The notes: generated from the letters alone by a model not told the origin. Counted from the stretch's first letter, positions 7,793 to 35,575 are shown. The stretch: DNA of 64,000 nucleotides from Chloroflexota bacterium (GCA_963663275.1 OY760183.1:3168001-3232000); one strand, 5' to 3'. A program made the numbers and translations.

Positions 7793-7798
7793 ATGGTC

Positions 7799-12410: not shown

Positions 12411-12658
12411 GATTTTCCTCGTCGTTCCTTGAGGCCAAACACAGTGGCTATGAGCCTGAAATCAGATCTGCCTATTCCAAGTCCACAAAGAAGTGCTCCA
12501 AGGCACATTGGTACGTTTCGTTACGCAATTGACCGCTTCGCCTCAACAGAACATGTACTACATGCACAATCTGCAACTTTAGAAGTGTATCGACATTCAA
12601 TAGGGCATTCGCTAGCTACGTAAAGAAAAGTCAATCTGGATTTAGACTTCCTGCAACT

Positions 12659-12737
12659 TGGTGAGAAAAAGAGGGCTTGACCTCCAAGCCTCCACGGTTT
12701 TCATTCGTGGCGATTGAACCAGTTGAGCTACTTGCTC
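12659..12737 (-). pseudogene. Degenerate tRNA-Val pseudogene (copy C)
   Basis: Aligns end to end with 35456-35532 (tggtg...gcctccacg...cgtggcg...gagctacttgc); stems and anticodon loop disrupted. Confidence 0.75.
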
Positions 12738-12747
12738 TTCATCCACT

Positions 12748-12780
12748 GCGGAGTATAGCACGGCACCAATACGTGAGCAA
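12748..12780 (-). promoter_or_regulatory. tRNA-type sigma70 promoter, copy C
   Basis: Minus strand TTGCTC-N17-TATACT with extended TG and CCGC discriminator. Confidence 0.7.
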
Positions 12781-12943
12781 TGGCTATCAGCGGGGCGACT
12801 GACCCCCTCGACCCTGTGGGCGGGGTGTTAGCGCAATGAAGCTAACACCTCGTCGCGGCGGCCGCATTGCCGGAGTGGTCGATGCGGTAGCCCGCGGCGG
12901 CTGAAAGCGGTGTGCGCGTGGGCGGCTTTCGAGCCGGACGGAC

Positions 12944-13044
12944 TCATACTTCCGCCGTCCGCCAGACGCCTTGCCGGTAGCGCCACCAGGCTCCGGCGGT
13001 GCGCGCCGCGAAGAAGGCGACCCCGGCAACGTAGACGCCGGGGA
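12944..13044 (-). pseudogene. 3' remnant of MATE transporter gene
   Basis: Near-identical to 14596-14696 (PGVYVAGVAFFAARTAGAWWRYRQG.WRTAEV*). Confidence 0.85.
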
Positions 13045-13139
13045 CATGGACGAGTATCTCAAGGACGACGACTACGGAAGTCCCTTACGCTTAAAGAGAA
13101 GCTGCCCTGGGCAGATAGTGGAGGGGCAGATCACCTGGG

Positions 13140-13898
13140 CTAACCTTGTAGGGTACCGCTCGCGCGGGTTGGGTACCGAGCGTTCGGGCTTTCAAGGATT
13201 GCGCGCTGGGATTCGGTCAGGTCTGCATAGTCATCGGGATCCAGGTAGCTGGCCGACCATGAGAGCGGGTGCGGGCTGTACTTGAAGAAGATAGTGCGGC
13301 GCTCGTCGGCGCCGTTCCAGGGAAGGGTGCCGTGGGTAAGGGCCTCGGTGAAGATGATGGCGGTGCCGGCGGGTCCGGTTACCCGCTCCACGAAAGGGCC
13401 CGGTTCGTCCATCTCTTTCCACTCTTCGGGGAACTTGAAGTTGCTCTTATGCGAGCCTGGCACGCAGCCAAAGCCGCCGTCCATGGGGCCGACATCCTTC
13501 AGATTGTAGGCAACCACGGAAAGGCCGTTATGCATCATCCCGTCATGGAAGCGGTAGTAGAACATGGGCCGGAAGGGGGCGCCGCCGCCGTGGAGGCTTG
13601 TCCCGATCGGGCCCTTGCCTGACCTGATGACATCGAGATAAACGTGGTCGAGCCTGAACTGATCGCCAAGCAGTTCGGTCAGGTAGGGTGTGATGGCCGG
13701 ATTGTCGATTAGGTCGCGGTAGTCCTTGGACCAGTGAAGCAGATGCTCAAACCTATGGGTGCGCATGTCCGTTGGGCATTCAGCGGCCATGTGCTCGTCG
13801 AGCACGCTGTTGAGCTGGGCGATCTTCTCAGGTGATAGTGCTCCCGGCACGGCAAGGTAGCCTTGAAGGTCGAACATGTAGCGCTCGTGGTCGTTCAT
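13140..13898 (-). CDS. Phytanoyl-CoA dioxygenase (PhyH) family Fe(II)/2OG enzyme
   Basis: FDLQGYL, LHGG, GGFGCVPGSHK, FTEALTHGTLPW...RR motifs. Confidence 0.88.
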   Translation of the reverse strand: MNDHERYMFDLQGYLAVPGALSPEKIAQLNSVLDEHMAAECPTDMRTHRFEHLLHWSKDYRDLIDNPAITPYLTELLGDQFRLDHVYLDVIRSGKGPIGTSLHGGGAPFRPMFYYRFHDGMMHNGLSVVAYNLKDVGPMDGGFGCVPGSHKSNFKFPEEWKEMDEPGPFVERVTGPAGTAIIFTEALTHGTLPWNGADERRTIFFKYSPHPLSWSASYLDPDDYADLTESQRAILESPNARYPTRASGTLQG

Positions 13899-14312
13899 GA
13901 GTTGTCTCCTTGTTACATGTTTTCTGGAATCAATGGCAACAGCCTTTATGCCACACTCTTTCCAGGCTCTGACTTTAGCCTACATCGACCGCCTCGATGG
14001 TCTACCACGATGCGCCAACTTAGAACTTGCCTTGCCACTCTGGAGCGCCAATCGCGGGAACCTGAATTCAATCTCTGTAACTGGAGTTTTGCCAAGGCAG
14101 CAGACATGCGCTTGCGTGGCGTCCATGATTTGCTTGCGAACGGGCGACCCTCTTCCTTCCCTAACACGGTTCCGTTCTTACCCTCCGTATTGTCAAATCC
14201 CTAAGAAACAATCTCAAAATGGTCAGCCGCCACAGTCGGCGGAACCACAAGGCGGGTCTGGCCAAATGCTACCGTGGAATAGTTCGAGTCCCCTCAGTGC
14301 TTAGCTATGAAC

Positions 14313-14389
14313 TGGTGGGCAAGGGAGGACTCGAACCTCAGATCTCCACGATGTCAACATGGCGCTCTAACCGGCTGCGCTACTTTCCC
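14313..14389 (-). pseudogene. tRNA-Val(GAC) near-intact copy, probably pseudogene (copy B)
   Basis: 77 nt, 7 differences from 35456-35532; GAC anticodon and CCA kept but mismatches in acceptor, D and T stems. Confidence 0.8.
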
Positions 14390-14399
14390 TACCTACAAA

Positions 14400-14432
14400 G
14401 CGGAGTATAGCACGGCGCCTACATGGGAACAA
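14400..14432 (-). promoter_or_regulatory. tRNA-type sigma70 promoter, copy B
   Basis: Minus strand TTGTTC-N17-TATACT with extended TG and CCGC. Confidence 0.7.
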
Positions 14433-14595
14433 TCGCCGTCGGTGGAGCAAGCGACCTTCTTGACGCTGTGGGCGGGGACTTAACGCAATGAAACTAACGC
14501 GCCGTTGCGGCGGCCGCATTGCCGCAATGGTCGATGCAGCAGCCCTCGGCGGCCGAAAACGGTGTGCGCATGGGCGGCTTGCGAGCCGGACGACC

Positions 14596-16011
14596 TCATA
14601 CTTCTGCCGTGCGCCAGGCTCCTTGCCGGTAGCGCCACCAGGCACCGGCGGTGCGCGCCGCGAAGAAGGCGACCCCGGCAACGTAGACGCCGGGGAGTCC
14701 CCAGCCGACCACGCCGGTGAGCAGCCACGCCAGCGGTACCATGACCAGGTAGCTGGCAGCCGTGGACGTGTAGAGCACCCATTTGGAGTCACCGGCGGCG
14801 CGCAGCACCGCGGCCAGCGTCATGCTCGCGGCCATGAAGGGCACCTGCAGCAACAGGAGGGGGAGAACGCGCGTTACCTCCGCTACCACAGCGACGTCGG
14901 GGGTCAGCAGGTGCAGTATTGCGGACGGCGCGACCAGCACCGGCGCCAGGACGAACGCCGGCAGGGCGGCCATCAGCAGCAGCCCGGCCCGCTGGGTGAG
15001 CGCCACCGTGCGCTCATCGTCGTTGCCAAGGCTCTGCCCGATCAGGATAGACACGCCGGTCGAAAGCGCCCAAATCATCGCCCAGAGGATCTGGTGTACA
15101 TTGGTGACGACCTGCATCCCGGCGATGACGGTGGCGCCGAGCGCGGCGACAATCCAGAGCACGAGCACGTTGTTGGCGTAGCCCAGGAAGAGCATGGCCG
15201 TCTCGGGCCAACCGATCGACCAGAGCCGCGGCAGCGCCTCCCGGGCCTGGCGCAGTCGCCCGAAGCGGAAGAGAGCGTACGTGCCGCGGAACCTTCTCCA
15301 GCCAAATTGCGCCATGTAGACGCAGCCCACGGCTACCGCGATCAGCGTCCCGACGCCCGCGCCGCGAAGCCCCCAGCCTGCCACGAAGATCAGGACATAG
15401 TTCAGCGGGACGTTGATCACGTTGACGAGGAGCGTCACGCGCATCGCCACGCCGGTCTCCCCCACGCCCGCGTAGACGGCGCGGAACATAGCCGTGGCGG
15501 CCGCGAACGGCGCGGCGAGCGCGAGTATGCGGAGATACGGCACGCCCTCGGACTGCACAACCTCGCTCAATCCGAACGCGGCGAGGAGCGGCCCTGCGGC
15601 GACGTTCAAGACCAGGAGCACCACGAGGCCGGCGCCAACGCCGATGAGCAACGAGACGTCCAGCAACCGCCCAACCGCCGCCGGCCGTCCCTCGCCGAAC
15701 CTGCGGGCCGAGATCACCTGCGCCGCGGTCGCCCATCCGCCAAACAGCATGCCCGCCGCGATGTTGATGGACGAGGCGACGGCCGCCGCCGCCAGCGCCT
15801 GAGTGGACACACGGCTGATCATCGCGGTGTCCACGACCGCAAGCACGATCTGCGAGAGATTCGCGACGACGATCGGGTAGCTCAAGGCGAGCACCCGCTT
15901 CAGCACGACCGTCTGGGCTGTTGCCACCGCGACGCCAGCTTTCGTCAAGATGGTGCGCGCGCAGCCACCGGCATGAGCGAGGGCGCATCCCGGTGGAGAC
16001 GCTTGCCGCAA
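14596..16011 (-). CDS. MATE family efflux transporter
   Basis: About 12 hydrophobic segments; LSYPIVVANLSQIVLAVVDTAMI, YLRILAL, NVPLNYVLIF, LRAAGDSK; true start uncertain (possibly GTG 15927). Confidence 0.9.
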   Translation of the reverse strand: MRQASPPGCALAHAGGCARTILTKAGVAVATAQTVVLKRVLALSYPIVVANLSQIVLAVVDTAMISRVSTQALAAAAVASSINIAAGMLFGGWATAAQVISARRFGEGRPAAVGRLLDVSLLIGVGAGLVVLLVLNVAAGPLLAAFGLSEVVQSEGVPYLRILALAAPFAAATAMFRAVYAGVGETGVAMRVTLLVNVINVPLNYVLIFVAGWGLRGAGVGTLIAVAVGCVYMAQFGWRRFRGTYALFRFGRLRQAREALPRLWSIGWPETAMLFLGYANNVLVLWIVAALGATVIAGMQVVTNVHQILWAMIWALSTGVSILIGQSLGNDDERTVALTQRAGLLLMAALPAFVLAPVLVAPSAILHLLTPDVAVVAEVTRVLPLLLLQVPFMAASMTLAAVLRAAGDSKWVLYTSTAASYLVMVPLAWLLTGVVGWGLPGVYVAGVAFFAARTAGAWWRYRQGAWRTAEV

Positions 16012-16091
16012 TCGAGCGGTCGGCGTTCATGCGGCGCGCCGTGGCCGCCACCTCCACTTATTGCGACTTCATGTCATTATGGAGTCTAGGT

Positions 16092-16120
16092 ATGGTATAC
16101 CGTCCTCATCAAGGTGTCAA
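16092..16120 (-). promoter_or_regulatory. Sigma70 promoter for MATE
   Basis: Minus strand TTGACA-N17-TACCAT. Confidence 0.6.
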
Positions 16121-16293
16121 CCTCTGTCGAGGACCGTTAGCGAGGCTGTTAGAAGGGGGATTCGTCGCTCCGAAGTCGCGCTTGGGCGGATGTGCGCCTT
16201 CCGATCGGCTACAGCCATGCGGCAGAGTCTCTCGGAACATACATGACATGAGCTATCAACAGAAGATCGTGAGGGAGCCCGGAGGCTTGTCCA

Positions 16294-16611
16294 TTAGCGA
16301 ACGGTGTTCATTTCGAGTTGGACGCCCTCGTGCTGCTGGATGCGGCTGATGACCTCGAAGAGATTGCGCGCGTGGGGGTTGCCGGCTGGCCCGAACATGC
16401 GCATCAGACTCTTGGGCGGCTTGCCGGTCAGGGAACCAAGCTCCTCGAACCCGACGGTGGCGTTGATATAGTCACGCAGGACGATCTTGCCCACATCGAC
16501 GTCCCCGGCAAGCAGGCGCTCAATACCTTCCTCGAGCAGCCCTTCGCGAAATTCCGGGTCGCGCGCGGCGCGGGTCTGGACGGTCTCTTTAGAGTCGCGG
16601 GTGAGCGGCAT
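16294..16611 (-). CDS. HTH transcriptional regulator / addiction-module antitoxin-like protein (orphan)
   Basis: MPLTRD.KETVQ.RAARDPEFR...LRDYINATVGFEEL...KSLMRMFGPAGNP. Confidence 0.8.
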   Translation of the reverse strand: MPLTRDSKETVQTRAARDPEFREGLLEEGIERLLAGDVDVGKIVLRDYINATVGFEELGSLTGKPPKSLMRMFGPAGNPHARNLFEVISRIQQHEGVQLEMNTVR

Positions 16612-16645
16612 CTTTCACGCCTCCCGCTGCATGTGACGATTGTAC

Positions 16646-18814
<2,169 letters not shown>

Positions 18815-18859
18815 CTACGCGCCGCGCGGACGTGACGTGCGCTGCTATCGCTTCGCTGT

Positions 18860-18907
18860 CGCCCAGTCGCGGCGCCGGTTAACTGCGTTGCTTGCGCTTC
18901 CCCATTG
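18860..18907 (-). pseudogene. Highly decayed 5' part of tRNA-Val (copy D), separated from its promoter by MITE insertion
   Basis: Joining across the MITE gives ctgcgttgcttgcgcttccccattgagcggagtatagcatggga vs intact ctgagctacttgcccttcctctattgcggagtatagcatggga. Confidence 0.5.
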
Positions 18908-19009
18908 GAGACCTTTGCATAACCCCTTCCCCATTGAGGGGGAAGGTTGGGATGGGGGTGAAACGGCTTGACTTCATGGCGCTGTTGGTTGTAATTGCGC
19001 TCTGGATTC

Positions 19010-20043
19010 CCTAGACTCACAAACGAAGTGCAACACTTTGCTAAGGTGTTGCCATGGGAAAACAATACACACAACTTACCATTGAAGAGCGGTGTGAAAT
19101 TGCCCGACTTCTCACCGCGAGAACCTCGCACCGGCAAATCGCTGCAACTCTGGGTCGCGCGCCATCGACGATTTCGCGGGAGGTGAAACGAAATGGATCG
19201 CAATCGGCAGGCTATGAGCCAAAGTATGCCGATGATCAGGCGTGGGCGCGGTGCTGGCGCGGCAGCAAGCTGGAGCGGGATGCCGAGTTGCGGGAGGTGG
19301 TGTTGGGATACTTGCGGGATTGTTGGTCGCCGGAGCAGGTATCCGGACGTTTGGCGCGGGAGAACGGCGCGCCGGTCGTCTCTCACGAGACCATCTATCG
19401 CTTCATCTACGGGCAGCAGGCGCGCACGAAGGACGGTAACTGGCGGCATTACCTGCCGCGCGCCAAGTCCAAACGGGGCTGGCGCGGGCGAAAGGGCGGC
19501 AGTCCGGCCTCGTTCATTGCCCAGCGCCGACCGCTGGCAGAACGGCCCCAGGCGGCGGCAGACCGCCAAACGCCCGGCCACTGGGAGGCGGACCTGATGC
19601 TCTTTCGCACCTACGGTCAAGCAGTCTTGACCCTGCACGAGCGCCACTCGCGCCTGTTGCTGGCCGCGCGACCGCCCGGCAAGGCGGCAGCGCCGATCGC
19701 CACTATCCTGCACGACCTGTTCGCCGCGCTGCCCCCAGCGTGCAGCCAGACCGTCACGTTCGACAATGGCACGGAGTTCGCACAGCATTACCGCCTCCAT
19801 GACTTGGGCATCCAAACCTTCTTCTGCGATACCCACTCGCCCTGGCAGAAAGGGGGCATCGAGAACGCCATCGGCCGCCTGCGGCGCCGGCTGCCGCGCA
19901 AGACCGACCTGGCACAGGTGAGCCAACAACGCTTTGCGCAACTGGTCCACGCCTACAACCACACCCCGCGCAAGTGTCTTGACTTCCAAACGCCAGCCGA
20001 AGTATTCATCAACCAGGTGTTGCACTTGAAATGTGAATCCACC
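19010..20043 (+). mobile_element. IS30 family insertion sequence
   Basis: ~26-bp imperfect IRs (ctagactcacaaacgaagtgcaacac / gtgttgcacttgaaatgtgaatccac), TTC duplication within CTGGATTC|CGGCTTTCGCCGGAATGAC. Confidence 0.88.
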
Positions 20044-20064
20044 TTCCGGCTTTCGCCGGAATGA
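19054..20064 (+). CDS. IS30 family transposase
   Basis: HTH RQIAATLGRAPSTISREVKRN; WSPEQ, GHWEADL, TFDNGTEF, PWQKGGIEN, N.TPRKCLDF.TP. Confidence 0.95.
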   Translation: MGKQYTQLTIEERCEIARLLTARTSHRQIAATLGRAPSTISREVKRNGSQSAGYEPKYADDQAWARCWRGSKLERDAELREVVLGYLRDCWSPEQVSGRLARENGAPVVSHETIYRFIYGQQARTKDGNWRHYLPRAKSKRGWRGRKGGSPASFIAQRRPLAERPQAAADRQTPGHWEADLMLFRTYGQAVLTLHERHSRLLLAARPPGKAAAPIATILHDLFAALPPACSQTVTFDNGTEFAQHYRLHDLGIQTFFCDTHSPWQKGGIENAIGRLRRRLPRKTDLAQVSQQRFAQLVHAYNHTPRKCLDFQTPAEVFINQVLHLKCESTFRLSPE

Positions 20065-20091
20065 CAGAGTTATGCAAAGGTCTCCCATTGA

Positions 20092-20124
20092 GCGGAGTAT
20101 AGCATGGGACGTATGCCGGGACAA
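20092..20124 (-). promoter_or_regulatory. tRNA-type sigma70 promoter, copy D (points at katG)
   Basis: Minus strand TTGTCC-N17-TATACT; 18 bp identical to the intact tRNA promoter (gcggagtatagcatggga). Confidence 0.7.
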
Positions 20125-20140
20125 TCGAGGACGGCGCGCG

Positions 20141-20488
20141 CTACTCGCTCTCTTCCGCGCCGCCCGCCTGGGCGTGCCTGGCGTGGAAGCCCCACCAGGC
20201 GAGGGCGATCACGGCAACCACGACAACGGGTATCCACACCCACGTCCACGTCTCCCACGCAATGATGCGCATCAGGAGCATCGCGGCGGAGAGGGAGAGC
20301 AGGATGCTGGGCACGTGCTGCTTCTGCAGGGACGCGATGCTACCGACGCCCATGAAGATGCCGGGGACGATGAAACTGCTCCACGGCTCATCCGTGAAGA
20401 TGACACCTACCACCTGGGCAACGACCAACCCCAACACGAACATGGCAGCGTACTTGCCAATCGACGCAGCGGAAATCATGGATGCCAC
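20141..20488 (-). CDS. Hypothetical membrane protein (~4 TM)
   Basis: Four hydrophobic stretches; GGGAG RBS upstream. Confidence 0.65.
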   Translation of the reverse strand: MASMISAASIGKYAAMFVLGLVVAQVVGVIFTDEPWSSFIVPGIFMGVGSIASLQKQHVPSILLSLSAAMLLMRIIAWETWTWVWIPVVVVAVIALAWWGFHARHAQAGGAEESE

Positions 20489-20570
20489 TCCCTTCAGTGT
20501 AAATGAGTCTTCCGCCGTCCATGATACGCCATTGGCGCAAACGGGGCAGCGCGCCGCCCGTGGCGCGGGG

Positions 20571-26500: not shown

Positions 26501-29500
26501 CGCCCGGCCAGCCGGCGACGGTGGCCGCCACCGCGTCGGCCAGGATCCGGTTGGAGGCCCGTGACGCCGGCGCGGCAAAGTAGTAGTCCTGCGCGCCGGG
26601 CCCTTCCCGGGGGAAGAGGATTGACAGAGGATCCACCTCGCCCCGCAGCACCTCGGCCAGCGCGCCGCCGCTGCGCCTCAGCAGTCCCAATTCGACGGCG
26701 CCGTGGGGATGCACCTCCGCTATGCGGTCGGCAAACGCTTCCGCATCGCCCAGGACTTCGTCCGGCAGCGGCTCAGCGGCGCTCAATTCCACGCGGTAGC
26801 CGCCGTTCGCGGTGTGGCTCAATTCCCCGGCGTCGGCCAACAAGCGCAGCATGCGTTCCAACAATTTCCCATGTTCCGGCAAAACGTCCAGCCGCTCCCG
26901 CAACGCTTCCGGATCGATGGCCGTCCCCGCCTCGCGCTGCCATCCCAGCCGGTGCAGGGCCGCCAAGGCGTACGAGCGAGCCAACCGCTCCAGGTCGCGC
27001 AACAGCGCCGCCCGCTCGCCGGTATTGACGCCTTCCTGAGAGAGATAGTCGGCATACGTGCCCGCGTCCGCCGCAACCGCGGACGGCCCGTTCAGCGCGG
27101 CGGCGGAGCGCAAACCGCCCGCCAGGGGACGTTCGCGCCACACGTGCTCGTACAGAAGTTCCCCCACGCCTTCCGCTGACGTCAGCAAAGACGCCCGCGT
27201 GGCGCGCTTCAGGGCAAAGCCGGTCAATTCGCCCACCGGCGCGCCGTCCGGCGTGTAGAGCCACACGTCTCCCGTAAGGGTTTCCGGCGTCAGGGCGGCC
27301 GCTTCCCCCTCTTCCTGCCCCTGCGCGCTCTCCCGCACGCGCGCGCGGCAGACAATCCGCTCAGGCAGCGGCCCGCTCAGCCGCAGCCGCTCCCAACCGA
27401 ACGGCAGGTAGGTGGCGTCGCCACCGATGCCCGCCAGGTTGCGGGCGGCCGACATGACCTGAAAGCAGCCGTCCAGCAGCAGCGGATGGAGACTCGAACC
27501 GTCGGCCTCTTCGCCGTCTTGCAGCGCGACTTCCCCCACCGCCTCGCCTTCGTCACCCCACAACGCTTCCAGGGTGCGGAAGGACGGCCCAAAGTCAATG
27601 CCGCTCGCGGTCTTGTCCCGGTAGTAGCCGTTCAGGTCCACCGCATCGAGACGCGCCCGCAGGGCCGCAAGATCCATCCTCTCGCCGTTGGACGGCCCGC
27701 CCAAGCCGTCGGAGAGCCGGCCCTCGGCGTGGAGCGTCCACTCCTCGCCGTCATCGCCTTTGCTGAAAATCTCGAAAGCGCGGGCGGCCCCGTTCTCGGG
27801 CGCGTCGACGACCAGTTGCAGCCGGCGACCCGGCTCCGGGTTTTCGTCCGGCTCCCCGTGCTCGGCGCTTTGTTCCGGGTACACCAACGGGCTGTGCAGT
27901 TGCAGTTCCTCCACCACGGCGGCGTCCGCCCCCTCGGCCAGGAGCGCGGTCGCGGCCATCGCGCCGTACACCGCCCCGGGCATCACCACCCGGCCGAACA
28001 CCTGGTGATGGTCGAGCCAGGGCGGATCCGAGGGGAACATCTCCGTCTCGTACGCGACCTCGCCACGCGGCGATTCGCGCTTTGCGCCCAGCAGCGGATG
28101 CGCCTCTTCCTCGAAATCGCCGTTCCCTGAGGCGCGCCGCCGGCCGGCCGCTACCCAGTAGCGCCGCCGCTGGAAAGGATAGCCGGGCACGGAGACGCGC
28201 TGCCGTTCTTCACCGGCGTAGAGGCCACTCCAGTCCACCGGCAGACCGGCCTGGTATGCATCGCCGACGGCGCGCATGAAAGCGTCCGCCCGTTCCGGTT
28301 CTGAGCCGTCGTAGGCCGGGCGCAGCAAGCTCTGCAAGACCGCCGGAGACGCGGCGGCGCCCGCGTTCTCAGGCCAGTTCATGGAAACCAAAGGGCCCAG
28401 TATCGCGTGGGGGCCAAGCTCGATGACGGCGTCCACGCCGAGGCGGGCCAGACTCTCGATACAGTCCCGAAAGGCCACCCGCTGCCGGGCGTGGCGCCGC
28501 CAGTACGCGCCGTCCATCCTGACTTCCACTTCCCGGCCGGTGACGTTGCTGATGAGCGGCACGGCGGGGTCTGAGACCGGCATATCCGCCAGTGCCGCCA
28601 CCATGTCGTCCAGCCCGGGCTCGACCATGGCGCTGTGGTAGGCGGGGCTGGGCCTGAGCCGCCGCACGGACACGCCCGCCGCTTCCATCTCGTCCGCCAG
28701 ACCATGCACTGCCGCGCGCGGCCCGCTGACCACCTGGTGCGTGCCGTTGTCCACGCCGATGCAAAGCTCCGCGCCGGGCTGGTTCTCGTTCCACTGAGCA
28801 ATCGCCGCCGCCACCCGGGGCGCCGGGGCAAAGATGGCCGCCATAGCCCCGTCCATGGGCAGGTCTCCCAGAATGCTCCCCCGGGCCGCGGCAAAGCGCA
28901 GGCCGTCTTCCAAAGACAGCACTCCGGCCGCCTGGGCCGCCGCGATTTCGCCCAAACTGTGGCCCACCACCACGTCGGGACGAATGCCCACGCTCTCCCA
29001 GAGCGCGGTGAGAGCGCACTCCAGAGCGTAGATGGCCGGCTGGGTCCAGCGCGGCTCATCCAAGTCCCCGGCAGCGCCGGACCGGCCGAACATCACGTCC
29101 AGCAGAGATTCTCCACGCTCTTCTCGCAGGAGCCGGTCGCAGCGGTCGAGAACGGCGCGGAAGACCGGTTCCGTCCGGTAGAGCAGCACGCCCATGCCCA
29201 CCCACTGGTTCCCCTGCCCGGTGTAGGCGAAGGCTACCTTGGACGCGGCTGTGGCGGGCGCGTCATCGGCTGTATCCGCGATCCGCCGCAACTCGTCCCG
29301 CAGCCCGCCGGCGTCCCGGAAAACCGCCGCGCCGCGCCGCTGGAAGTGGCGGCGCGCGACGCTGGCGCTCCAGGCCGCGTCGGCCAGAGCGTCGTTCGCG
29401 GCGAGATTGGCATCGCCTTCCGCGCCCTCCGCCGCGTCCGCGCCGTTCCGGTCGTCCAGCCAGTAGAGGTACGCATCGGCCGCGTCCCGCAGCGCGCCGC

Positions 29501-31091
29501 CGTTCCTGCCGGAGAGCGGCAGCACGCGCGCCGGACGAGATTCTGCCGCTGTAGGCGGCCCGTCTGCCATTGGCAGGGAAAGCCGCGCGGGAACGGCGCG
29601 CGGCGGCCCAGCCGGGGGCGTCAAGGCGGCGCCGTTCTCCGAAATGGTCGCGGCAACCTCAGGGCAACCCTCCACGATGACGTGCACGTTGGTTCCCGAC
29701 CAACCGTATGAACTGACGCCGGCCCGCGGCGGCCGGTCGGCGTTTACCGGCCACGCCGTCCGTTCTGACGTAATCTTCACCGGCAGACGCTCCCAATCCA
29801 GGCGCGGATTGGGGTCGTTGAAATGCAGGTGCCGGGGAATCGACCTGTGATGCATTGACAAGATCGCCTTCATAAACCCGGCCACCCCGGCCGCCGACTC
29901 CATGTGACCGACGTTGGTCTTGACAGAGCCGACCAGCAGCGGGCGGTCGGGCGTTCTGCCCTTGCCGTAGATTGCGGCGGCGGCGTTCAGCTCGATGGGG
30001 TCGCCCACTTCCGTGCCCGTGCCGTGGGCCTCTACGTAGTCAACCTCGTGGGGCGCGACGCGGGCCTGCCGGAGGGCATCCACGATGACGCGCTCCTGCG
30101 CGGGGCCGCTGGGGACGGTGAAGCCGGCGCTTGTGCCGTCCTGGTTGACGGCCGAGCCGAGCATGATACCCCAAATGCGGTCGCCGTCGGCCCGGGCGTC
30201 GCGGAGCCGCTTGAGCACGACCATGCCGCAGCCCTCGCCGCGCACGAAACCGTTGGCGGAGGCGTCGAAGGCTTTGCACTGGCCGTCCGGCGATAACATG
30301 CCGGCCTGGGCGCGCAACTGCGTGAGCCGTCCAAGAAAGATGGCCTGCACGCCGCCGACGACGATCATGTCGGCCTCGTCCTGCCGCAGGCTGGCTGCGG
30401 CCTGGTGCAAGGCGAGCAGCGAGGATGAACAGGCCGTGTCCACGGCCATGGCCGGCCCCTCTAACCCCAAGGCGAAGGCGACCCGGCCGGCGGCGGTGTT
30501 GAGCGACGTGCCGGCGACGGCATAGAGACTGGCGGCGGGCTCGGTCTGCTGGGCGGCGGCCATGCTGATGCCCCGGTAGTCCATGTTGCTGATGCCAAGG
30601 AAAACGCCGGTGCGGCTGCCCTTGAGTTGGGCGGGATCCACCAGCGCGTCCTCGAGCGCCTGCCAGCAGGTCTCCAGCACCATGCGCTGCTGGGGATCCA
30701 GCAGTTGCGCCTCCACCGGGGAAATGCGGAAGAACTCGGCGTCGAAGAGGTCGATGTCGTCCACCAGGGCGGCATAGCGGCAGGCCGGAATCTCATTGGC
30801 GGCCTTGGGATAGAACTGGCCGATGCGCCCCACGCCGGAACCAGGCACGCCCTCGGTGACGGCGTTGCGGCCCTCCGCCAGCAGCCGCCAGAATGACGCC
30901 AGATCCGGCGCGCCGGGAAACTTGCACGCCATGCCGATCACGGCGATCGGCTCCACGTCTCCGGCCAAGCCCGCGCCCGCGGCGGAGCCGACTTCCGCAG
31001 CCCCCCGCTCACCGTCAGGCGTGGCGCGCAACCGATCCCGCTCCAATTGCTTCAGCGTGTCGCGCTCCCGCGCGGTCGGTTCGTCGCTCAC
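20571..31091 (-). CDS. Type I PKS, SupA-like: KS-AT-DH-cMT-ER-KR-ACP-KS-AT(inactive)
   Basis: KS DTACSSS/HGTGT/GHME; AT GHSLG; DH HHQVFGRVVMP; MT EVGAGTG; ER HTASGGVG; KR GGMGGIG; ACP DLGMDSL; KS2 DMACAS; AT2 GHGAG; GTG start 31091 after GAGGAG. Confidence 0.93.
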   Translation of the reverse strand: MSDEPTARERDTLKQLERDRLRATPDGERGAAEVGSAAGAGLAGDVEPIAVIGMACKFPGAPDLASFWRLLAEGRNAVTEGVPGSGVGRIGQFYPKAANEIPACRYAALVDDIDLFDAEFFRISPVEAQLLDPQQRMVLETCWQALEDALVDPAQLKGSRTGVFLGISNMDYRGISMAAAQQTEPAASLYAVAGTSLNTAAGRVAFALGLEGPAMAVDTACSSSLLALHQAAASLRQDEADMIVVGGVQAIFLGRLTQLRAQAGMLSPDGQCKAFDASANGFVRGEGCGMVVLKRLRDARADGDRIWGIMLGSAVNQDGTSAGFTVPSGPAQERVIVDALRQARVAPHEVDYVEAHGTGTEVGDPIELNAAAAIYGKGRTPDRPLLVGSVKTNVGHMESAAGVAGFMKAILSMHHRSIPRHLHFNDPNPRLDWERLPVKITSERTAWPVNADRPPRAGVSSYGWSGTNVHVIVEGCPEVAATISENGAALTPPAGPPRAVPARLSLPMADGPPTAAESRPARVLPLSGRNGGALRDAADAYLYWLDDRNGADAAEGAEGDANLAANDALADAAWSASVARRHFQRRGAAVFRDAGGLRDELRRIADTADDAPATAASKVAFAYTGQGNQWVGMGVLLYRTEPVFRAVLDRCDRLLREERGESLLDVMFGRSGAAGDLDEPRWTQPAIYALECALTALWESVGIRPDVVVGHSLGEIAAAQAAGVLSLEDGLRFAAARGSILGDLPMDGAMAAIFAPAPRVAAAIAQWNENQPGAELCIGVDNGTHQVVSGPRAAVHGLADEMEAAGVSVRRLRPSPAYHSAMVEPGLDDMVAALADMPVSDPAVPLISNVTGREVEVRMDGAYWRRHARQRVAFRDCIESLARLGVDAVIELGPHAILGPLVSMNWPENAGAAASPAVLQSLLRPAYDGSEPERADAFMRAVGDAYQAGLPVDWSGLYAGEERQRVSVPGYPFQRRRYWVAAGRRRASGNGDFEEEAHPLLGAKRESPRGEVAYETEMFPSDPPWLDHHQVFGRVVMPGAVYGAMAATALLAEGADAAVVEELQLHSPLVYPEQSAEHGEPDENPEPGRRLQLVVDAPENGAARAFEIFSKGDDGEEWTLHAEGRLSDGLGGPSNGERMDLAALRARLDAVDLNGYYRDKTASGIDFGPSFRTLEALWGDEGEAVGEVALQDGEEADGSSLHPLLLDGCFQVMSAARNLAGIGGDATYLPFGWERLRLSGPLPERIVCRARVRESAQGQEEGEAAALTPETLTGDVWLYTPDGAPVGELTGFALKRATRASLLTSAEGVGELLYEHVWRERPLAGGLRSAAALNGPSAVAADAGTYADYLSQEGVNTGERAALLRDLERLARSYALAALHRLGWQREAGTAIDPEALRERLDVLPEHGKLLERMLRLLADAGELSHTANGGYRVELSAAEPLPDEVLGDAEAFADRIAEVHPHGAVELGLLRRSGGALAEVLRGEVDPLSILFPREGPGAQDYYFAAPASRASNRILADAVAATVAGWPGDRPLRIVEVGAGTGAGTTSVLPELPAGGYDYVFTDISAGFFAEAERRFSEVDAPIEYRPLNIERDPAEQGFDRHAYDLVIAVNVLHATRSLEETLTNCQRLLAPSGKLIAMENLRGRGWQDMTFGQLDGWWRYADDYRPHHALASPEVWRRALADVGFEDTAVLGGESPGADGPLGSGVILGQGPAEIVQDRGAWVVASDHAVAAEMLAARLAAQNQTVAVAGTAHSGGMSASDGPGVFPVQVDAEDRESWRRLLENLPGDAPLQGVVHCAALEGHGTEATTAQLAADASRTGASALALAQALQDTGLRPEKGLWILTRGAQALERDYMLESVDQLAGAALWGFGKALAREVGYLQPRMIDLEPDAPPDAGALVDEIMFPDAETHVAYRSGKRLAARLVKRGEGRSRVELPQEPDWRLAPTAGEGLEGLRAEPAAPQPLGSGDVRVAVEAAGLNFADVLISLGAVENVPVLGAEFCGRVTEVAPDVTEFRVGERVVGLGIGTFRPEVVTRAEMVARVDTAAPAAALATIPEAFVSAELSFQFTGLNAGERVLIHTASGGVGLAAIQLVRAAGAEVFATASKAKHAYLRSQGVTHVFDSRSTDFADEILQATGGAGVDVVLNTLTGPGYIEAGLACLAEGGRFVELGRRDIWTPEEMAAARPDVAYAVLALDVLKREDPATPGASLRRVMARVNDGESLAPLPFTRWPMAEVAAAMDFMRSTRHVGKIVIVMPPLAHGRLRADRAYLVTGGMGGIGTQVAGWLAERGAGVIVLNGRRPPDPPAAAAIDALRRQGADVRVELADAADPAALDAMLERLRASAPPLAGIVHSVGVLSDGSLGNQTWERYEQVLWPKVLGAWHLHQATRRQDLDLFVLFSSVTGVLGNAGQGNHAAANAFLDQLAGYRRSLGLPGQAIAWGAWSGLGEAEEQRARIERQLAASGTDWISPQQGLEAFDELVRQDQTSGMAAAVDWPMFIENFEEKPPYLEELVTEDAAADGDADTPQEDLPTRLRQAPAGEWEPLLVSLLQAETQAVLRLPTPPATTIGFFDLGMDSLMAVELRNRLNRALADEYVVSNTAVFDYPNVEALAVHLAAELSEVLSADAPAAVAEASAEPAAPQPQRERGAEDDAIAIVGMACRFPGAPDLASFWELLANGTDAISDGRQGGSDWSGTVGDPEAPDVATRRGAFVADIDLFDSRFFRIAPIEARMMDPQQRMLLETTWQALEDAGIDPESLRGSRAGVYAGVSSSEYREVAAARNAAHNYLGTTGSVAVGRVAFALGLAGPAMPLDMACASALAAVHQGVVGLQRGEVDLALAGGVNVVLSPGLSRFMMEFELLSPTGQCRPFDAAANGYVRGEGCGIVALKRLSQAEADGDRIYAVIRGSAVNQSGASAGLTVPNGPSQERVMAEALAQAGVLPSQVDYLEAHATGSPMGDPIELHAAASVYGQDRDTERPLLVGTVKSNIGHTEWAAGSAALIKTVLAMNQGVIPKHLHFENPNPNVDWEELPLRVTADETAWPDTSGRQPLAGVNAFGISGANAHVLVEGYGSPANAPTAANGAVLPAGSPQAVPVPLAEQDDGAPALEAAEGVERAARLLPLSGKSAGALRDLAERYLAWLDQLSANGGEDRPALNEALADAAWTAGVGRSHFSHRAGLVFGDAAQLRQRLRALAAADEVLDEDDPPAATKVAFLYAGPGDEWAGMAAALYRGEPVARDALDRCDAVLREARDVSLLNVFLGEPGDERDADDPALAGMAAYALGCALTAQWASVGIRPNAVVGHGAGALAAAQAAGVFTLEDGARLAMAASETATASETATGSEAADSVNSLAAPAVPLVSSATGRVVAPEDALDGGYWLRQDWQRANDGGAGDFSGCAETLARLGVDAVLEIGSDAMLGRRIGGAWPQAAPAPTVLAAPAQTADGGEAPPAHEAFTQAVAAAYAAGLNVSFGGLFAGETRRRVALPTYPFQRRRHWV

Positions 31092-31488
31092 GGCAGTCTC
31101 CTCTGTCGAATTCTGATATGCATGCGGCTGGGAGTGGTCTTCTTCAGATTGCGCGCGCCCTTTGCGCGCGCCCTCGGCCCGCTTCACGCGCGGCCTGGAA
31201 TGAAGGTGCCGGCCCGGCGCTACCCCGTGTGTCATCTGGGCCGGGCGGCGCTCTTGGATCGGGTGCTCCGGCCCGTCTGCCACGCCGCCCCGCTCGCTGG
31301 GACAGATTGCTCCCTGGAACGAGAGACCCCGCTGCTCGGCACGGCGCCGGCGCTCTTCCACGCCCCGATCGAAGCGGACGGCTATATGTCAATTATCACG
31401 CGGCGCATGACTTTTGGCAACAGATCTCCCTTGGTCTTGAACGGGGTGTGGTTGTAGGGTTGAATCAGGGTTCGACGCCGTAGGGGGC

Positions 31489-32172: not shown

Positions 32173-32255
32173 CCCTGCCGGCGGCCACGCTGTGCCACGG
32201 CAGGAGAGATCGAGAAAGGTCGCGACGAAGATTTGGTGGGCTGGGGAGGACTGAA
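32173..32255. repeat. Diverged direct repeat of tRNA-Val 3' end plus its 3' flank (att-like site)
   Basis: ccctgccg..cacgctgtgcca.ggcaggagaga.cgaga...gatttggtgggc..g.gaggact matches 35395-35478. Confidence 0.75.
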
Positions 32256-32534
32256 TTGCGAACTTTTCGCTGGGAGATACTGATATAAGGAGGTGGGTCT
32301 GGTGTAAGTCCAACGCCCCTTCCGATGCCTCCCCCGACCGCGGCGTTACGACGAGCGCACTGCCCAGGCGTTGGTCGTGCTGCCCGCCGTCGCGCACACG
32401 CGGCGCCTGAGGAGCGAGAGGCCGATGGTGTGGGTCACTGCTACGTCAGCCCCCGTATCTCACAGCGTCGTGAAGGCGTTCGCCGTGGCCAGCAGGTCGA
32501 CCCAGCCCTGGCCCGCGCTCGTACCACGCCGGCC

Positions 32535-34751
32535 CTACTTTGGCGCGGCCGTTATTGAGAACTTCGTGACGCGGGTGTTGGCATCGGGAGTCCAAGAGGA
32601 GCCGCTATTGGTGGAGGCGGTGTACGTGTTGCCGATTGTCCACCCGACGGAGCCGGTTTCGTCGTTCGAGGCGGTAGCCGCCCAAGTGAAGCTGTAGCCG
32701 CTGGTGGCGCTCAGCACCAGGAAGTAGCTCGTGCCGGCGGAGAGGTCGCAGGCGGCGCCGGAGCAACTGAAGGTGTAGGCGCCGTTCGCGTCCCCCGTGT
32801 TGGTCAGCGTGACCAGGCTGCTGTTGGGGTTGGCGTTGCCGCTGCCCTTGGAGAAGATGCGCAGGGTAACGTTGCTGCTCCCGCTGCCCGGGCTGATTGG
32901 GACGGTTACTTCGGACACGGTGTAGCCGTTGGTGTTGCTGCCGGTGGTGAACTCGTTGGCAATCCACGCGCCGCCGGACGTGCTGGGCGAACCCTGCGTC
33001 GAGGTTTCCGACAGGTTGCTGACCCCTACTGGCGTCGTGAAGCTGACGGTTTGGAGCGCCGTCGTCGCGCAGGCGGAGTCGCTGTACGCCTTGTAGGTGT
33101 AGTCCGCGCCTCCCGTCAGGCTGCTGAGCGCGTGGGAGTAGTCAGACTCGCCTGCCGTGCACGTTCCGATGGTCGGCGCAGTCTCCTTCAGCCACCAGTC
33201 CCCAACGTGCCCCGCCAACGTCAGTGTGGCCGTCGTGGGGGTGATGCTGGACGCGGAGAACGAATAGAGGTCGAACGTCGTCGCCGCCACGTGGTAGTTG
33301 CAGCCGCCGTCCGAGTAGGCTGCGACGGCGTGGGTTCCGTCCTGGTAGCCCGCGATGCCGCTGACGGTGTTTCCGGACACAGCAGTGCAGGTTCCCCACC
33401 AGTTGATGCGGAACCACCAGTTGCTCGGCCCGCCGATGAGCGTGAGGGCGACCGAGCGGTCGGTGTTCACCGTAGCCGTCAGGGTTGCGGTGGGAATGGT
33501 GAATGGCGACGACGCAATCTTGGTATGGCAGCCGCTGTCGGAATAGGCGGCGACGGAGTGGGTTCCCGGCTGGTAGCCCCGGATGTTGCTGACGGTGGTT
33601 CCCGTCGCCGCCGTGCAGGCGCCCCAGTAGTTGATGCGGAACCACCAGTTGCTCGGCCCGTTGGACAAGTTGAGGTTAACCGAGCGGTCGTCGTTGACCG
33701 TGGTTGCCAGGGTTGCCGTGGGCGGCGGGTCGGGAATGACGAAATACGCATCTGTGAGGAAGTCCGTGCAACCGGCAGTGGCGAAAGCGCTGGCCTCGTG
33801 GTATCCCGGCGCGTAGCCTTGGATGCCGCTGACGGTGGTCCCGGTTACCGCCGTGCAGGAGCCGATGCCGATGCGGAAATACCAGGGGGACGGCCCGTTG
33901 GACAGGGTGAGGTCAACCGAGCGGTCGGTGTTCACCGTAGCCGTCAGGGTTGCGGTGGGAATGGTGAACGACGACGACGCAATCTTGGTATGGCAGCCGC
34001 TGTCGGAATAGGCGGCGACGGAGTGGGTTCCGGCCTTGTAGCCCCGGATGTTGCTGACGGTGTTTCCGGACGCAGCCGTGCAGGTTCCCCAGTAGTTGAT
34101 GCGGAACCACCAGTTGCTCGGCCCGTTGGACAGGGTGAGGTCAACCGAATGGTCGCTGTTCACCGTAGCCGCCAGGGTTGTGGTGGGAATGATGAAATAC
34201 GCATCTGTGAGGAAGTCCGTGCCCGCGCAGCCGGCAGTGGCGAAAGCGGTGACCTCGTGGTATCCCGGCGCGTAGCCCTGGATGCCGCTGATGGTGGTCC
34301 CGGTTACCGCCGTGCATGTGCCGATGCCGATGCGGAAGTACCAGGGGGACGGCCCGTTGGACAGGGTGAGGTCAACCGAGCGGTCGCTGTTCACCGTCGC
34401 CGTCAGGCTTGCGGCAGAAATGGTGAACGTCGTCGCTGCTATCTGGTCGGCGCAGTTGCTATCGGAATAGGCCCAGACGGAGTGTGTCCCCAGATTGTAG
34501 CCCTGGATGCCGGTGATGCTGTTGCCGGTCACCGCCGTGCAGGTGCCCCAGGAGTTGATACGGAACCACCAGTTGCCCGTATGGTTGGAGATGGCGAGGT
34601 CAACCGACTTGTCGCCGTGCACCGTCGCCGCAAGGCTGGCAGACTGCGCTGACATTGGGGATGGGTAAGAACCGGCGACGGCCAGCAGAGCCAGCAGCAG
34701 GGCGGCCAGCCTGACCCAACGGGTTGCGGAAAATGCGCTTTGCAGTTTCAT
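32535..34751 (-). CDS. Secreted repeat protein: signal peptide + six ~76-aa Cys/Trp Fn3-like repeats + one Fn3-like domain + C-terminal 'FTTGSN..GY' domain
   Basis: MKLQSAF...LAALLLALLAVAG signal; repeats TVN.DRSVDLTLSNGPS.W.FRI...CTA...C; ATG overlaps upstream stop (ATGA). Confidence 0.85.
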   Translation of the reverse strand: MKLQSAFSATRWVRLAALLLALLAVAGSYPSPMSAQSASLAATVHGDKSVDLAISNHTGNWWFRINSWGTCTAVTGNSITGIQGYNLGTHSVWAYSDSNCADQIAATTFTISAASLTATVNSDRSVDLTLSNGPSPWYFRIGIGTCTAVTGTTISGIQGYAPGYHEVTAFATAGCAGTDFLTDAYFIIPTTTLAATVNSDHSVDLTLSNGPSNWWFRINYWGTCTAASGNTVSNIRGYKAGTHSVAAYSDSGCHTKIASSSFTIPTATLTATVNTDRSVDLTLSNGPSPWYFRIGIGSCTAVTGTTVSGIQGYAPGYHEASAFATAGCTDFLTDAYFVIPDPPPTATLATTVNDDRSVNLNLSNGPSNWWFRINYWGACTAATGTTVSNIRGYQPGTHSVAAYSDSGCHTKIASSPFTIPTATLTATVNTDRSVALTLIGGPSNWWFRINWWGTCTAVSGNTVSGIAGYQDGTHAVAAYSDGGCNYHVAATTFDLYSFSASSITPTTATLTLAGHVGDWWLKETAPTIGTCTAGESDYSHALSSLTGGADYTYKAYSDSACATTALQTVSFTTPVGVSNLSETSTQGSPSTSGGAWIANEFTTGSNTNGYTVSEVTVPISPGSGSSNVTLRIFSKGSGNANPNSSLVTLTNTGDANGAYTFSCSGAACDLSAGTSYFLVLSATSGYSFTWAATASNDETGSVGWTIGNTYTASTNSGSSWTPDANTRVTKFSITAAPK

Positions 34752-35125
34752 GTCAGCCTCTCTTTCAGCCGGAACTGGGTCGCCGCGCTGGGCGGGGCAG
34801 CCGTGAACACGCCGACAATGTAACTCTTGGCGTTGTCCACGTCGAACGTGATGCTGGTGGCGCCGTGGTCGAGCGCGGCGAGTTCCCAACTCGCGCCGCC
34901 GGTCGAACTGTAGGTTACGTGGTACGTGGTCGCGCCGGAGACGGCGGGCCACGAGGCGGACAGCGTGCCGTCGGCGCGTGTCACCGACACCGAGGTGGGG
35001 GCGCCGGGCGGCGACTGCGCCAGCGCAGTAGACGGCAGCAGCGCCAGCGCGACGAGCGCCAGCGCCACGAACGCGGCGAGCCGCCACGCCGATGAAGGTC
35101 GTGAAAACACACGTCGCATTCCCAT
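34748..35125 (-). CDS. Small secreted Fn3-domain protein (probably truncated)
   Basis: Signal peptide then PPGAPTSVSVTRADGTLSASWPAVSGATTYHVTYSS..G.SW. Confidence 0.7.
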   Translation of the reverse strand: MGMRRVFSRPSSAWRLAAFVALALVALALLPSTALAQSPPGAPTSVSVTRADGTLSASWPAVSGATTYHVTYSSTGGASWELAALDHGATSITFDVDNAKSYIVGVFTAAPPSAATQFRLKERLT

Positions 35126-35282
35126 GTCATGCCTTTCAAGTAGTCACGTCAACGTGAATATACCGTGATGACTTGTCGCCCCTCTCATTGTGGGGGGAGG
35201 GCTCGACCTGGCTCCATCCTCGACACGGGGTTGAGCATGAATCGCTATGTAAGTAATGTGCCCATCAAGCACTATACACTAC

Positions 35283-35313
35283 TAGAGGACTATATACTTG
35301 TAGAGGACTATAT
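35283..35313. repeat. Direct repeat TAGAGGACTATAT x2, 18-bp period (candidate operator)
   Basis: 35283-35295 and 35301-35313, weaker third copy near 35265. Confidence 0.55.
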
Positions 35314-35455
35314 GCTATCAGAATACGTTACCCTATTGTCAACCAAATTGCCGGCTGATTAGGGTTTAGACGCAGGAATGTGGAAGGCAAGGCACCCTGC
35401 CGGGCACACGCTGTGCCATGGCAGGAGAGAGCGAGAGGGGGACGTGGCTGCGATT

Positions 35456-35532
35456 TGGTGGGCAAGAGAGGACTCGAACCTCCGGCCTCCACGATGTCAA
35501 CGTGGCGCTCTAACCGGCTGAGCTACTTGCCC
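35456..35532 (-). tRNA. tRNA-Val(GAC)
   Basis: GGGCAAGTAGCTCAGCCGGTTAGAGCGCCACGTTGACATCGTGGAGGCCGGAGGTTCGAGTCCTCTCTTGCCCACCA folds into a full cloverleaf with encoded CCA. Confidence 0.97.
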
Positions 35533-35542
35533 TTCCTCTATT

Positions 35543-35575
35543 GCGGAGTATAGCATGGGAATCACCCTTGGGCAA
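35543..35575 (-). promoter_or_regulatory. tRNA-Val promoter (copy A)
   Basis: Minus strand TTGCCC-N17-TATACT, extended TG, GC-rich discriminator. Confidence 0.75.

Follow-up and report, generated by a model that had tools for sequence, protein, structure and literature searches.

We describe a locus in which blocks of unrelated genes are separated by co-oriented copies of one tRNA gene, tRNA-Val(GAC), most of them accompanied by its promoter. The locus lies in a 64,000-nucleotide (nt) stretch of a Chloroflexota genome (GCA_963663275.1, OY760183.1:3168001-3232000), which we refer to as the window. Textbooks present tRNA genes as the landing sites of genomic islands and explain this by the specificity of integrases. 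Here, a lineage that is nearly devoid of integrases still builds a subdivided, tRNA-anchored island, whose modules vary even between genomes with 98% identical rpoB genes. On balance, we favor the interpretation that the tRNA-Val(GAC) locus of this order-level lineage of Dehalococcoidia is an integrase-free hotspot of variable genes driven by homologous recombination.

A promoter-tRNA unit is repeated at module borders

The window belongs to a genome assembled as a single contig of 3.53 Mb with 64% GC (G000). ARAGORN and Rfam agree on two minus-strand tRNA-Val(GAC) genes, at 35456-35532 (71.8 bits) and 14313-14389 (51.0 bits). The former, copy 1, is intact, with 0 of 21 stem pairs broken, and is the sole copy in this genome without stem mismatches; its promoter (35533-35575, minus strand), found by a consensus scan, combines a -35 box TTGCCC, a 17-nt spacer and an extended -10 box TG-n-TATACT. 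Copy 2, which spans 14313-14432 on the minus strand including its promoter, is identical to copy 1 at 70 of 77 positions, the seven differences causing three stem mismatches. Copy 3 (12659-13044, minus strand) comprises a remnant of the 3' end of a MATE gene, a promoter and a decayed tRNA (12659-12737) that retains 57 of 77 positions, has five stem mismatches and has lost its anticodon; this tRNA elicited no ARAGORN call and no Rfam match at E<=1. A fourth unit has been split by an insertion sequence (IS). Its promoter (20085-20124, minus strand), recognized from its sequence and a shared 16-mer, reads TTGTCC-17-TATACT with TG at 20124-20096, abuts the inverted repeat of the IS and is thereby severed from its own heavily decayed tRNA 5' part (18860-18907, minus strand), which was identified by eye by comparison with copy 1 and lies beyond the other IS end, 70 nt upstream of katG. 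The fifth repeat (32173-32252, minus strand) consists of the last 19 nt of the tRNA and a 61-nt trailer with a hairpin, at the right border of the first module.

Self-comparison by BLASTN recovered four repeat pairs: 35456-35558 with 14313-14415 (103 nt at 87.4%, E 1.7e-29), 35448-35558 with 12651-12763 (114 nt at 77.2%, E 7.6e-15), 14360-14696 with 12708-13044 (337 nt at 83.4%, E 1.9e-98) and 35395-35474 with 32173-32252 (81 nt at 79%, E 5.9e-10), the last corresponding to the tRNA 3' end and trailer. The upstream end of the third pair reaches the 3' end of the MATE gene, and since copies 2 and 3 share these 337 bp, copy 3 carries a MATE remnant. Thus, the original prediction that near-intact, decayed, split and 3'-end copies accompany an intact gene was confirmed by ARAGORN, Rfam, self-BLASTN and sequence inspection, as were the seven differences of copy 2 and, within the window, the shared orientation of the copies and their position at borders of unrelated cargo modules.

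The repeated element is larger than a tRNA fragment. Four of the five repeats contain the promoter and the 5' half of the tRNA, and the unit of promoter and whole tRNA measures about 105-125 bp. A 16-mer around the -10 box is present at all four of these units, against 0.01 occurrences expected in the window (0 of 100 shuffles reached four), and the four sites are its only occurrences in the 3.53-Mb genome. Between the co-oriented copies lie a choice-of-anchor-R protein, a type I polyketide synthase (PKS), a block of katG, a 105-amino-acid (aa) protein and MATE, the PhyH gene, and a low-GC block with GHKL and methyltransferase genes. Several unlike patches of homology are likewise duplicated at module borders, namely the MATE 3' end (337 bp, 83%), the 3' end of a core gene (178 bp, 84%) and the tRNA 3' end with its 61-nt trailer (79%), each about as diverged as species of the genus are from one another.

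Gene content turns over among related genomes

We compared 16 loci, that of the window and those of 15 relatives, after calling open reading frames (ORFs) and clustering their proteins; in the collection used, the order is represented by one genus of 17 species, without a close outgroup. The tRNA-Val(GAC) locus is present in all 17 genomes, 12 of which carry two to five promoter-tRNA units within 1-30 kb, co-oriented throughout. The number of units at the locus ranges from one to five among these congeneric genomes, and promoter-only relics occur at four further places among the 16 loci.

The backbone before the unit encodes a glycogen-debranching enzyme, an aminotransferase, and MFS, HD-GYP-like and TPR proteins, and the backbone after it encodes PhyH, four small or housekeeping genes and a core gene with a PLD-like domain. 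In all genomes of the genus, a PhyH segment comes after a unit, at 88-99% nt identity. Because this downstream flank is conserved in all 15 other loci, it is copy 2 of the window that sits at the ancestral site, and not the intact copy 1. About 30 other Dehalococcoidia loci (L043-L077), from other genera, encode PhyH homologues without an adjoining tRNA-Val, and a filtered genome-wide scan of G000 revealed no stray copies of any other tRNA. In G000 and G011, the locus is separated from the tRNA-Val(TAC)/Phe...TPR backbone that precedes tRNA-Val(GAC) in 14 other genomes; the distance in G000 is about 370-400 kb (C1:2790779-2801204 versus the window), with the breakpoint directly upstream of the unit and no relic beside the TPR gene.

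The cargo between and after units includes a SOUL protein, a set of two DUF1538, one P-II and one CBS protein, three BrxD-like ATPases in G009 and G013, an HKD-Snf2 protein in G002 and G010, HsdM in G011, a PKS in G011 and the window, a fibronectin protein and two DDE transposases in G005, and a 22-kb island of giant Calx-beta/fn3 proteins (giant adhesins) and kinases in G005 and G007. An 831-aa STAND-like ATPase, in a 2.9-kb module, occurs in G001 only. Module sizes range from 1 to 22 kb. Both order and content of the modules differ among the 16 related genomes, in agreement with the gain and loss of cargo that had been anticipated. G004, G005 and G007, whose rpoB genes are 98% identical, have one, five and two units, respectively, and therefore turnover is real and partly recent.

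Several observations indicate that units change place together with their surroundings. G005 carries a relocated block made of a decayed copy, the SOUL gene and another copy, and the unit associated with the 105-aa gene is found both upstream and downstream of PhyH among genomes. The relocated SOUL block, together with the MATE remnant at copy 3, supports the earlier proposal that units travel as whole tRNA plus promoter. In one lineage, a trailer of about 45 nt after the tRNA is common to the DUF1538 cassette and the otherwise unrelated HKD-Snf2 cassette (L020:11974-12030, L020:16921-16975, L019:14419-14475 and clade A equivalents), and the repeated unit of that lineage therefore extends past the CCA end.

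Copies within a genome are 76.6% identical (31 pairs) versus 78.8% for copies from different genomes (599 pairs). Since copies of the same genome are no closer to each other than to those of other genomes, the array is not the product of a single tandem duplication or of concerted evolution. It is also extremely improbable that the architecture is an assembly or binning artefact, in which strain variants collapsed at a repeated tRNA were joined into chimeras. The genomes are metagenome-assembled, and in run X1 the contigs across the region are all short. However, these contigs agree with the window at 0 differences in pieces that cover most modules, and 12 of the 17 assemblies, which are independent and in many cases consist of a single chromosomal contig, have at least two copies in the same arrangement. 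In addition, the copies are 13-28% divergent and each has flanks of its own, so neither collapse nor mis-joining is expected.

Identity shifts at the units point to homologous exchange

Sliding identity profiles revealed abrupt shifts at the unit in three comparisons. For species with 83-85% identical rpoB genes, identity reaches about 100% right at the unit and declines at a core gene. Between G003 and G015 (rpoB 85%), identity is 62-92% upstream of the unit, rises to about 100% for 4.3 kb right after it, and drops at the 3' end of the PLD-like core gene. Between G009 and G013, identity increases from 78-87% to 94-100% at the unit and stays high for 6.3 kb, a stretch that spans a second unit and the BrxD-like genes, before dropping at the same core gene. 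Finally, just upstream of its unit, G004 has a G003-type allele where its 98%-identical sisters carry the 22-kb island. This island, in G005 and G007, has its left join at a decayed unit and its right join inside the SOUL gene, of which a 71-aa remnant is left, a configuration that corresponds to one homologous end and one illegitimate end. Recently exchanged segments end on the right in an ordinary core gene and not in a second site.

The PhyH segment carries a corresponding signal. It is more alike than rpoB in 89 of 91 genome pairs, by a mean of 7.3 points, and contradicts the rpoB tree, G009 being, for instance, closer to G015 than to G008. The locus displays features of recombination-driven hotspots of horizontal gene transfer, or replacement islands, in that the same interval holds different genes, the similarity of its flanks is incongruent, and no mobility genes account for the turnover.

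These data also bear on the possibility that the unit was duplicated in the distant past, for instance to meet a demand for GUC-decoder dosage at 64% GC, and that the copies are non-causal landmarks between which content has changed by illegitimate insertion, IS activity and deletion. Consistent with such old paralogues, the SOUL, CBS and 105-aa-gene lineages of the unit each occupy the same relative place across species, divergence between copies is equal within and between genomes, G005 keeps three perfect copies, and the DUF1538 module has diverged between clades about as much as rpoB, fitting vertical descent. We nevertheless hold this explanation to be unlikely, given that identity jumps exactly at the unit in three independent comparisons, that units are displaced along with adjacent sequence (the SOUL block in G005, the 105-aa-gene unit on either side of PhyH, the MATE remnant), and that genomes with 98% rpoB identity differ by whole unit-bounded blocks. 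Moreover, most extra copies are decaying, which argues that tRNA dosage is not maintained.

Recombinases and mobile carriers

The original prediction had envisaged an integron-like platform with the tRNA unit as its recombination site. This site-specific component is not supported, as there is no recombinase in or near the 16 loci, no carrier was found among the viral contigs, phages and plasmids searched, and the right ends of exchanged segments fall in a core gene. A genome-wide six-frame search with PF00589 detected two Xer-like recombinases in each of the 17 genomes, as well as a weak match in G009 and a broken one in G014, and serine recombinases (PF00239) were found in four of 17 genomes, all far from the locus. 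In G000, neither six-frame search produced a match in the window, and Pfam identified no integrase among the window ORFs or the cargo-cluster representatives of the 15 related loci. The mobility genes seen at the loci are ISs alone (18904-20088 in the window and the two DDE transposases in G005). No intI lies divergent and adjacent to the array, the Xer-like recombinases being located elsewhere in the genomes; the array neighbours are housekeeping genes, and the divergent neighbour is a TPR protein in the relatives. In the window, the divergent neighbour of copy 1 is an enolase-superfamily-like protein, an assignment we treat as a lead only (Atlas 0.98). Self-comparison detected no repeat shared by module ends besides the tRNA units, and hence no attC-type sites. 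A search of the 16 loci for stand-alone tRNA 3' ends, with a 23-mer and up to four mismatches, returned none. The best match of the unit to a dif consensus has 11 mismatches, and this consensus gave no convincing dif in G000 either.

Candidate carriers were equally scarce. Viral contigs contained 0 matches to the exact 47-nt tRNA pattern, and BLASTN against plasmids and phages gave generic tRNA similarity only, with 0 records covering at least 80% of the query. Two short metagenome contigs with the promoter-tRNA pattern (L099 and L100) added no usable context; L099 is, among the matches listed, 99.96% identical to G009.

It is conceivable that a recombinase supplied in trans, be it of unknown family, only transiently present, or the Xer pair, acts on the whole tRNA unit and inserts unit-bearing cassettes that its promoter expresses, in the manner of integrons or islands. 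All units are direct repeats at module borders, and some modules look like single-gene cassettes without mobility genes, such as the 2.9-kb STAND module of G001, the insertion of which precisely duplicated the tRNA body. Furthermore, the unit lineage of the 105-aa gene precedes five different cargos that start a few nt after the CCA end, and, at 19 nt, the 3' fragment at 32234-32252 is as long as a classical att core. We consider such accretion quite unlikely in view of the absence of integrases from all 16 loci, the presence of only two Xer-like genes per genome, the location of serine recombinases (4/17 genomes) elsewhere, and the lack of a match to the unit on the viral contigs, phages and plasmids searched. 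In addition, the right borders of exchanged segments lie in the core gene or inside genes, the similarity of the 3' fragment runs 61 nt past the tRNA in both copies, unlike that of att sites, and the trailer of about 45 nt in two cargo types argues that junctions are not at one fixed point. Still less probable, in our estimation, is a cassette platform in which an unrecognized or trans-acting recombinase, perhaps the Xer pair or an enzyme that recognizes the cloverleaf of tRNA DNA in single-stranded form, in the way that folded attC is recognized by integron integrases, inserts and excises promoter-bearing modules at the whole unit, with homologous recombination as a second layer and no element-borne integrase.

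Promoters persist where tRNA bodies decay

Each of the 16 genomes retains at least one copy with 0 broken stem pairs. There are 18 such copies in all, three of them in G005, and the remaining copies have 1-10 broken stem pairs. In contrast to the tRNA bodies, the -10 block TGCTATAC(T/C)CCGC has been preserved in 36 of the 38 copies aligned, among them six with a tRNA body that is 49-57/77 identical, and it is also intact in the IS-split unit of the window. Assuming neutral decay of about 30%, the probability of retaining at least 14 of 15 positions is about 0.035 per lineage, for three roughly independent decayed lineages. The same extended -10 stands ahead of other tRNA genes in the genome, and the boxes are sigma-70-like, with a consensus scan detecting two of the four promoters in the window.

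Each module has its own copy of this sigma-70-like promoter, and the first sizeable ORF after the unit is co-oriented with it in 33 of 38 cases, as counted by hand on a rough ORF map. These patterns suggest that the promoters may have been retained to express cargo. The idea that the tRNA unit acts as an expression signal, which formed part of the original prediction, is thus plausible with respect to retention of the -10 block despite tRNA decay; for transcription itself, it has a consensus match in its favor.

A model of homologous exchange at the unit

We propose that the unit would be the one stretch that is nearly identical among species 15-30% diverged, and that crossovers with congener DNA, made by homologous recombination of the host, would therefore preferentially fall there. 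One crossover would take place in or at the unit, and the other in a second unit, in the PLD-like core gene (5568-7688), or as an illegitimate join. As incoming segments would bring their own copy of the anchor, units would pile up as direct repeats at module borders, and recombination between these repeats could delete or move modules. Redundant tRNA bodies would decay because one copy suffices, and decayed units would keep their promoters because these would now transcribe co-oriented cargo. We infer RecA-type crossovers, a route of DNA entry and promoter activity on cargo from the patterns described above.

A number of points weigh against this model. With 105-125 bp at 77-95% identity, the unit is a poor RecA substrate, and homologous recombination leaves unexplained the origin of the first duplicates and of new joints between cargo and unit. 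In G001, a tRNA copy that has no promoter is joined, exactly at the 5' end, to AT-rich foreign DNA with the STAND-like gene; only the tRNA has been duplicated, which has the look of a precise site-specific insertion. Sharp unit edges could stem from selection on promoter and tRNA, in which case they would be uninformative on mechanism. Contigs of runs X1, X2, X4 and X6 contained no valid unit-to-unit joint in 7000-26999, nor any intermediate or population variant. X2 and X4 have no coverage of 10335-13002, a gap to which we attach no meaning. A candidate joint from 14394 to 20092, with five letters between, was rejected as a copy 1 contig mapping partly onto copy 2 and the promoter of the split unit. 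As for expression, promoter activity is read from a consensus match, and the decayed T-arm of copy 3 scores as a terminator-like hairpin that would block read-through. The ORF maps, drawn with a rough caller based on GC content at third codon positions (GC3), are crude. Because the homology is short and imperfect, the first copies and joints are unexplained, and the G001 module is as described, site-specific accretion and old paralogues keep the small but appreciable likelihoods assigned to them above.

Relation to known systems

In integrons, the tyrosine recombinase gene intI is adjacent to the array, attC sites at the 3' ends of cassettes form imperfect inverted repeats, and a common promoter, Pc, drives expression. 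The locus described here resembles them in that its modules share one orientation, mostly look promoterless and are each associated with a repeated element, in that the array includes a toxin-antitoxin gene, and in that content varies between relatives. It differs in that there is no adjacent intI, the repeat is not an attC-type palindrome, each module has a promoter copy, and modules measure 1 to 22 kb. The locus, lacking intI and attC, is not an integron. In classical tRNA-targeting islands, the integrase usually lies next to the tRNA and direct repeats span no more than the tRNA 3' part (about 15-60 nt). As in such islands, a functional tRNA is kept, with at least one copy free of broken stem pairs in each of the 16 genomes; unlike them, no integrase was found at the loci, most repeats comprise the whole unit, and similarity of the 3' fragment continues for another 61 nt. 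Precedents for cassette exchange between conserved flanks, or for insertion with one homologous end, without a recombinase of their own are provided by the minimal mobile elements of Neisseria and by homology-facilitated illegitimate recombination. Our locus resembles these systems in apparently exchanging DNA without an element-borne recombinase; they are not known to multiply their anchor. Natural transformation is established in the bacteria concerned.

Three published systems are also close. Integrase-free hotspots have been described in which turnover occurs by recombination at flanking core genes (2017, PMC5635113). With these the locus shares an interval with different contents, the lack of mobility genes, enrichment in defence and niche genes, and evidence of flank recombination. 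In contrast to those hotspots, the left anchor here is a tRNA transcription unit copied with each module, and the interval is subdivided by up to five direct repeats, apparently reused as promoters. In Dehalococcoides, islands at ssrA are bounded by a 20-bp repeat matching the 3' end of ssrA and linked to a serine recombinase module (DsiB/DsiA), some islands being without integration genes (McMurdie et al. 2011, PMC3146451). Both cases concern the class Dehalococcoidia and tandem islands downstream of one small-RNA gene, each bounded by its repeat; the present locus departs from the ssrA islands in repeating the whole tRNA with its promoter and in having no recombinase that we could find at the loci. 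Finally, the tycheposons of Prochlorococcus carry tyrosine recombinases specific for tRNAs, and the partial tRNAs that they leave behind measure about 40 nt (Hackl et al., bioRxiv 10.1101/2020.12.28.424599). Common to both are successive arrivals beside a full-length tRNA, tRNA-derived repeats, niche genes and a lineage poor in classical mobile elements, whereas neither tRNA-specific tyrosine recombinases nor partial tRNAs of about 40 nt were found at our loci. In the literature searched, we found no description of whole tRNA-plus-promoter units subdividing an island.

If the model is correct, the tRNA gene would matter as an ultra-conserved patch of identity that lets homologous recombination cross diverged species, and the copied promoter would give incoming genes immediate expression. 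Genes would then be exchanged like cassettes by a simple and general route that needs no dedicated machinery, and this could help explain many integrase-free hotspots of other bacteria. Additionally, the locus gathers defence-like genes (methyltransferase/GHKL, HKD-Snf2, BrxD-like and STAND), making it a place to seek new defence systems.

Modules and borders of the window

The first module encodes an 850-aa repeat protein with a choice-of-anchor R domain (32535-35087, minus strand; NCBIfam NF041539, E 7.8e-28), which is not in the sister genome G011. Its gene contains several internal tandem repeats at 33273-34640, with 70-84% nt identity. The second module is a type I PKS of 3596 aa (20571-31361, minus strand) with Pfam KS/AT/DH/MT/ER/KR/ACP domains. 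Its nt identity to the PKS of G011 is about 70%, versus 91% for rpoB, and units flank the PKS in both genomes.

In the third module, the split unit is followed by a katG-like catalase-peroxidase (16646-18790, minus strand; Pfam peroxidase, E 5.5e-72), the 105-aa protein (16294-16611, minus strand; cluster c13, without family match) and a MATE efflux family protein (14596-16011; Pfam MatE, E 1.2e-48), the strand of which we correct to minus. The c13 gene lies directly upstream of one unit lineage in five other genomes and, in G011, after a RelE/ParE toxin gene. The original prediction had listed an antitoxin in this module: the gene is present, and its product has no match to a known antitoxin, or to any other sequence, in Pfam, NCBIfam, PADLOC or PDB. 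Its antitoxin role is presumed from gene order. A RelE/ParE-family toxin gene (7772-8095, plus strand; TIGR02683, E 3.7e-36) is located 8 kb away on the opposite strand, and the presumed toxin-antitoxin pair would therefore be split in the window genome.

The conserved module (13140-14312, minus strand) consists of a PhyH-family dioxygenase gene (13140-13898; Pfam PhyH) and a 414-nt non-coding leader (13899-14312) that extends from the tRNA of copy 2 to PhyH; the module is 88-93% identical in nt sequence to that of all relatives. This leader is about 90% conserved across the genus, above rpoB, and includes TTGACA as a second promoter-like box; in G011, about 290 nt of the leader have been lost. 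As for a structured RNA, the leader has no Rfam match at E<=1, and the covariation term of RNAalifold is unfavourable (+2.9).

The fifth module (8814-12410, minus strand), which stands out in the GC profile at 50-57% GC, encodes by Pfam a GHKL ATPase (10428-12410) and an N6/N4 DNA methyltransferase (8814-10280; PADLOC MTase_II, E 1.6e-55). Its right border is formed by a 178-bp duplicate (8434-8611, plus strand) of the core-gene 3' end, 84% identical to 7463-7640, and the toxin gene lies between the two copies of this 3' end. The core gene itself (5568-7688, plus strand; cluster c7), to which Pfam assigns a PLD-like nuclease domain, is 82% identical to that of G013 and corresponds to the right-hand anchor of exchanged segments in the relatives.

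Insertion sequence and additional observations

The fourth unit is indeed split, with its promoter on one side of the inserted element and the decayed tRNA 5' part on the other. The element had been taken for a miniature inverted-repeat transposable element (MITE) and is instead a full IS of 1185 bp (18904-20088, plus strand), with 20-nt inverted repeats and a 336-aa transposase (19054-20064) matching Pfam HTH_38 and rve. G000 contains nine full copies of this IS, 97-100% identical, and about 80 end-only derivatives. MITE-like derivatives of about 150 nt, with joints from 18976 to 20044 and about 30 letters between, occur at high depth in contigs of three runs.

G000 is also rich in interspersed repeats of 35-50 nt (e.g., C1:393859 and C1:1455586), within which ARAGORN calls of 'tRNA-Cys(ACA)' of 94-96 nt are probably false. 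The rpoB region of G013 (L085) has a 1544-aa open frame on a very long branch, with 72-82% identity to all others, which may reflect an insertion, an intein or an assembly problem. With regard to habitat, runs X2, X3, X5, X7, X11 and X12 each contain part of the window, and several are labelled sponge metagenomes. None of the runs listed for the window was of RNA. Contigs of X2 cover PhyH, MATE, katG and PKS at 90-99% likeness, and from these, related populations seem to live in sponges; the host lineage is an uncultured, apparently sponge-associated group of Chloroflexota.

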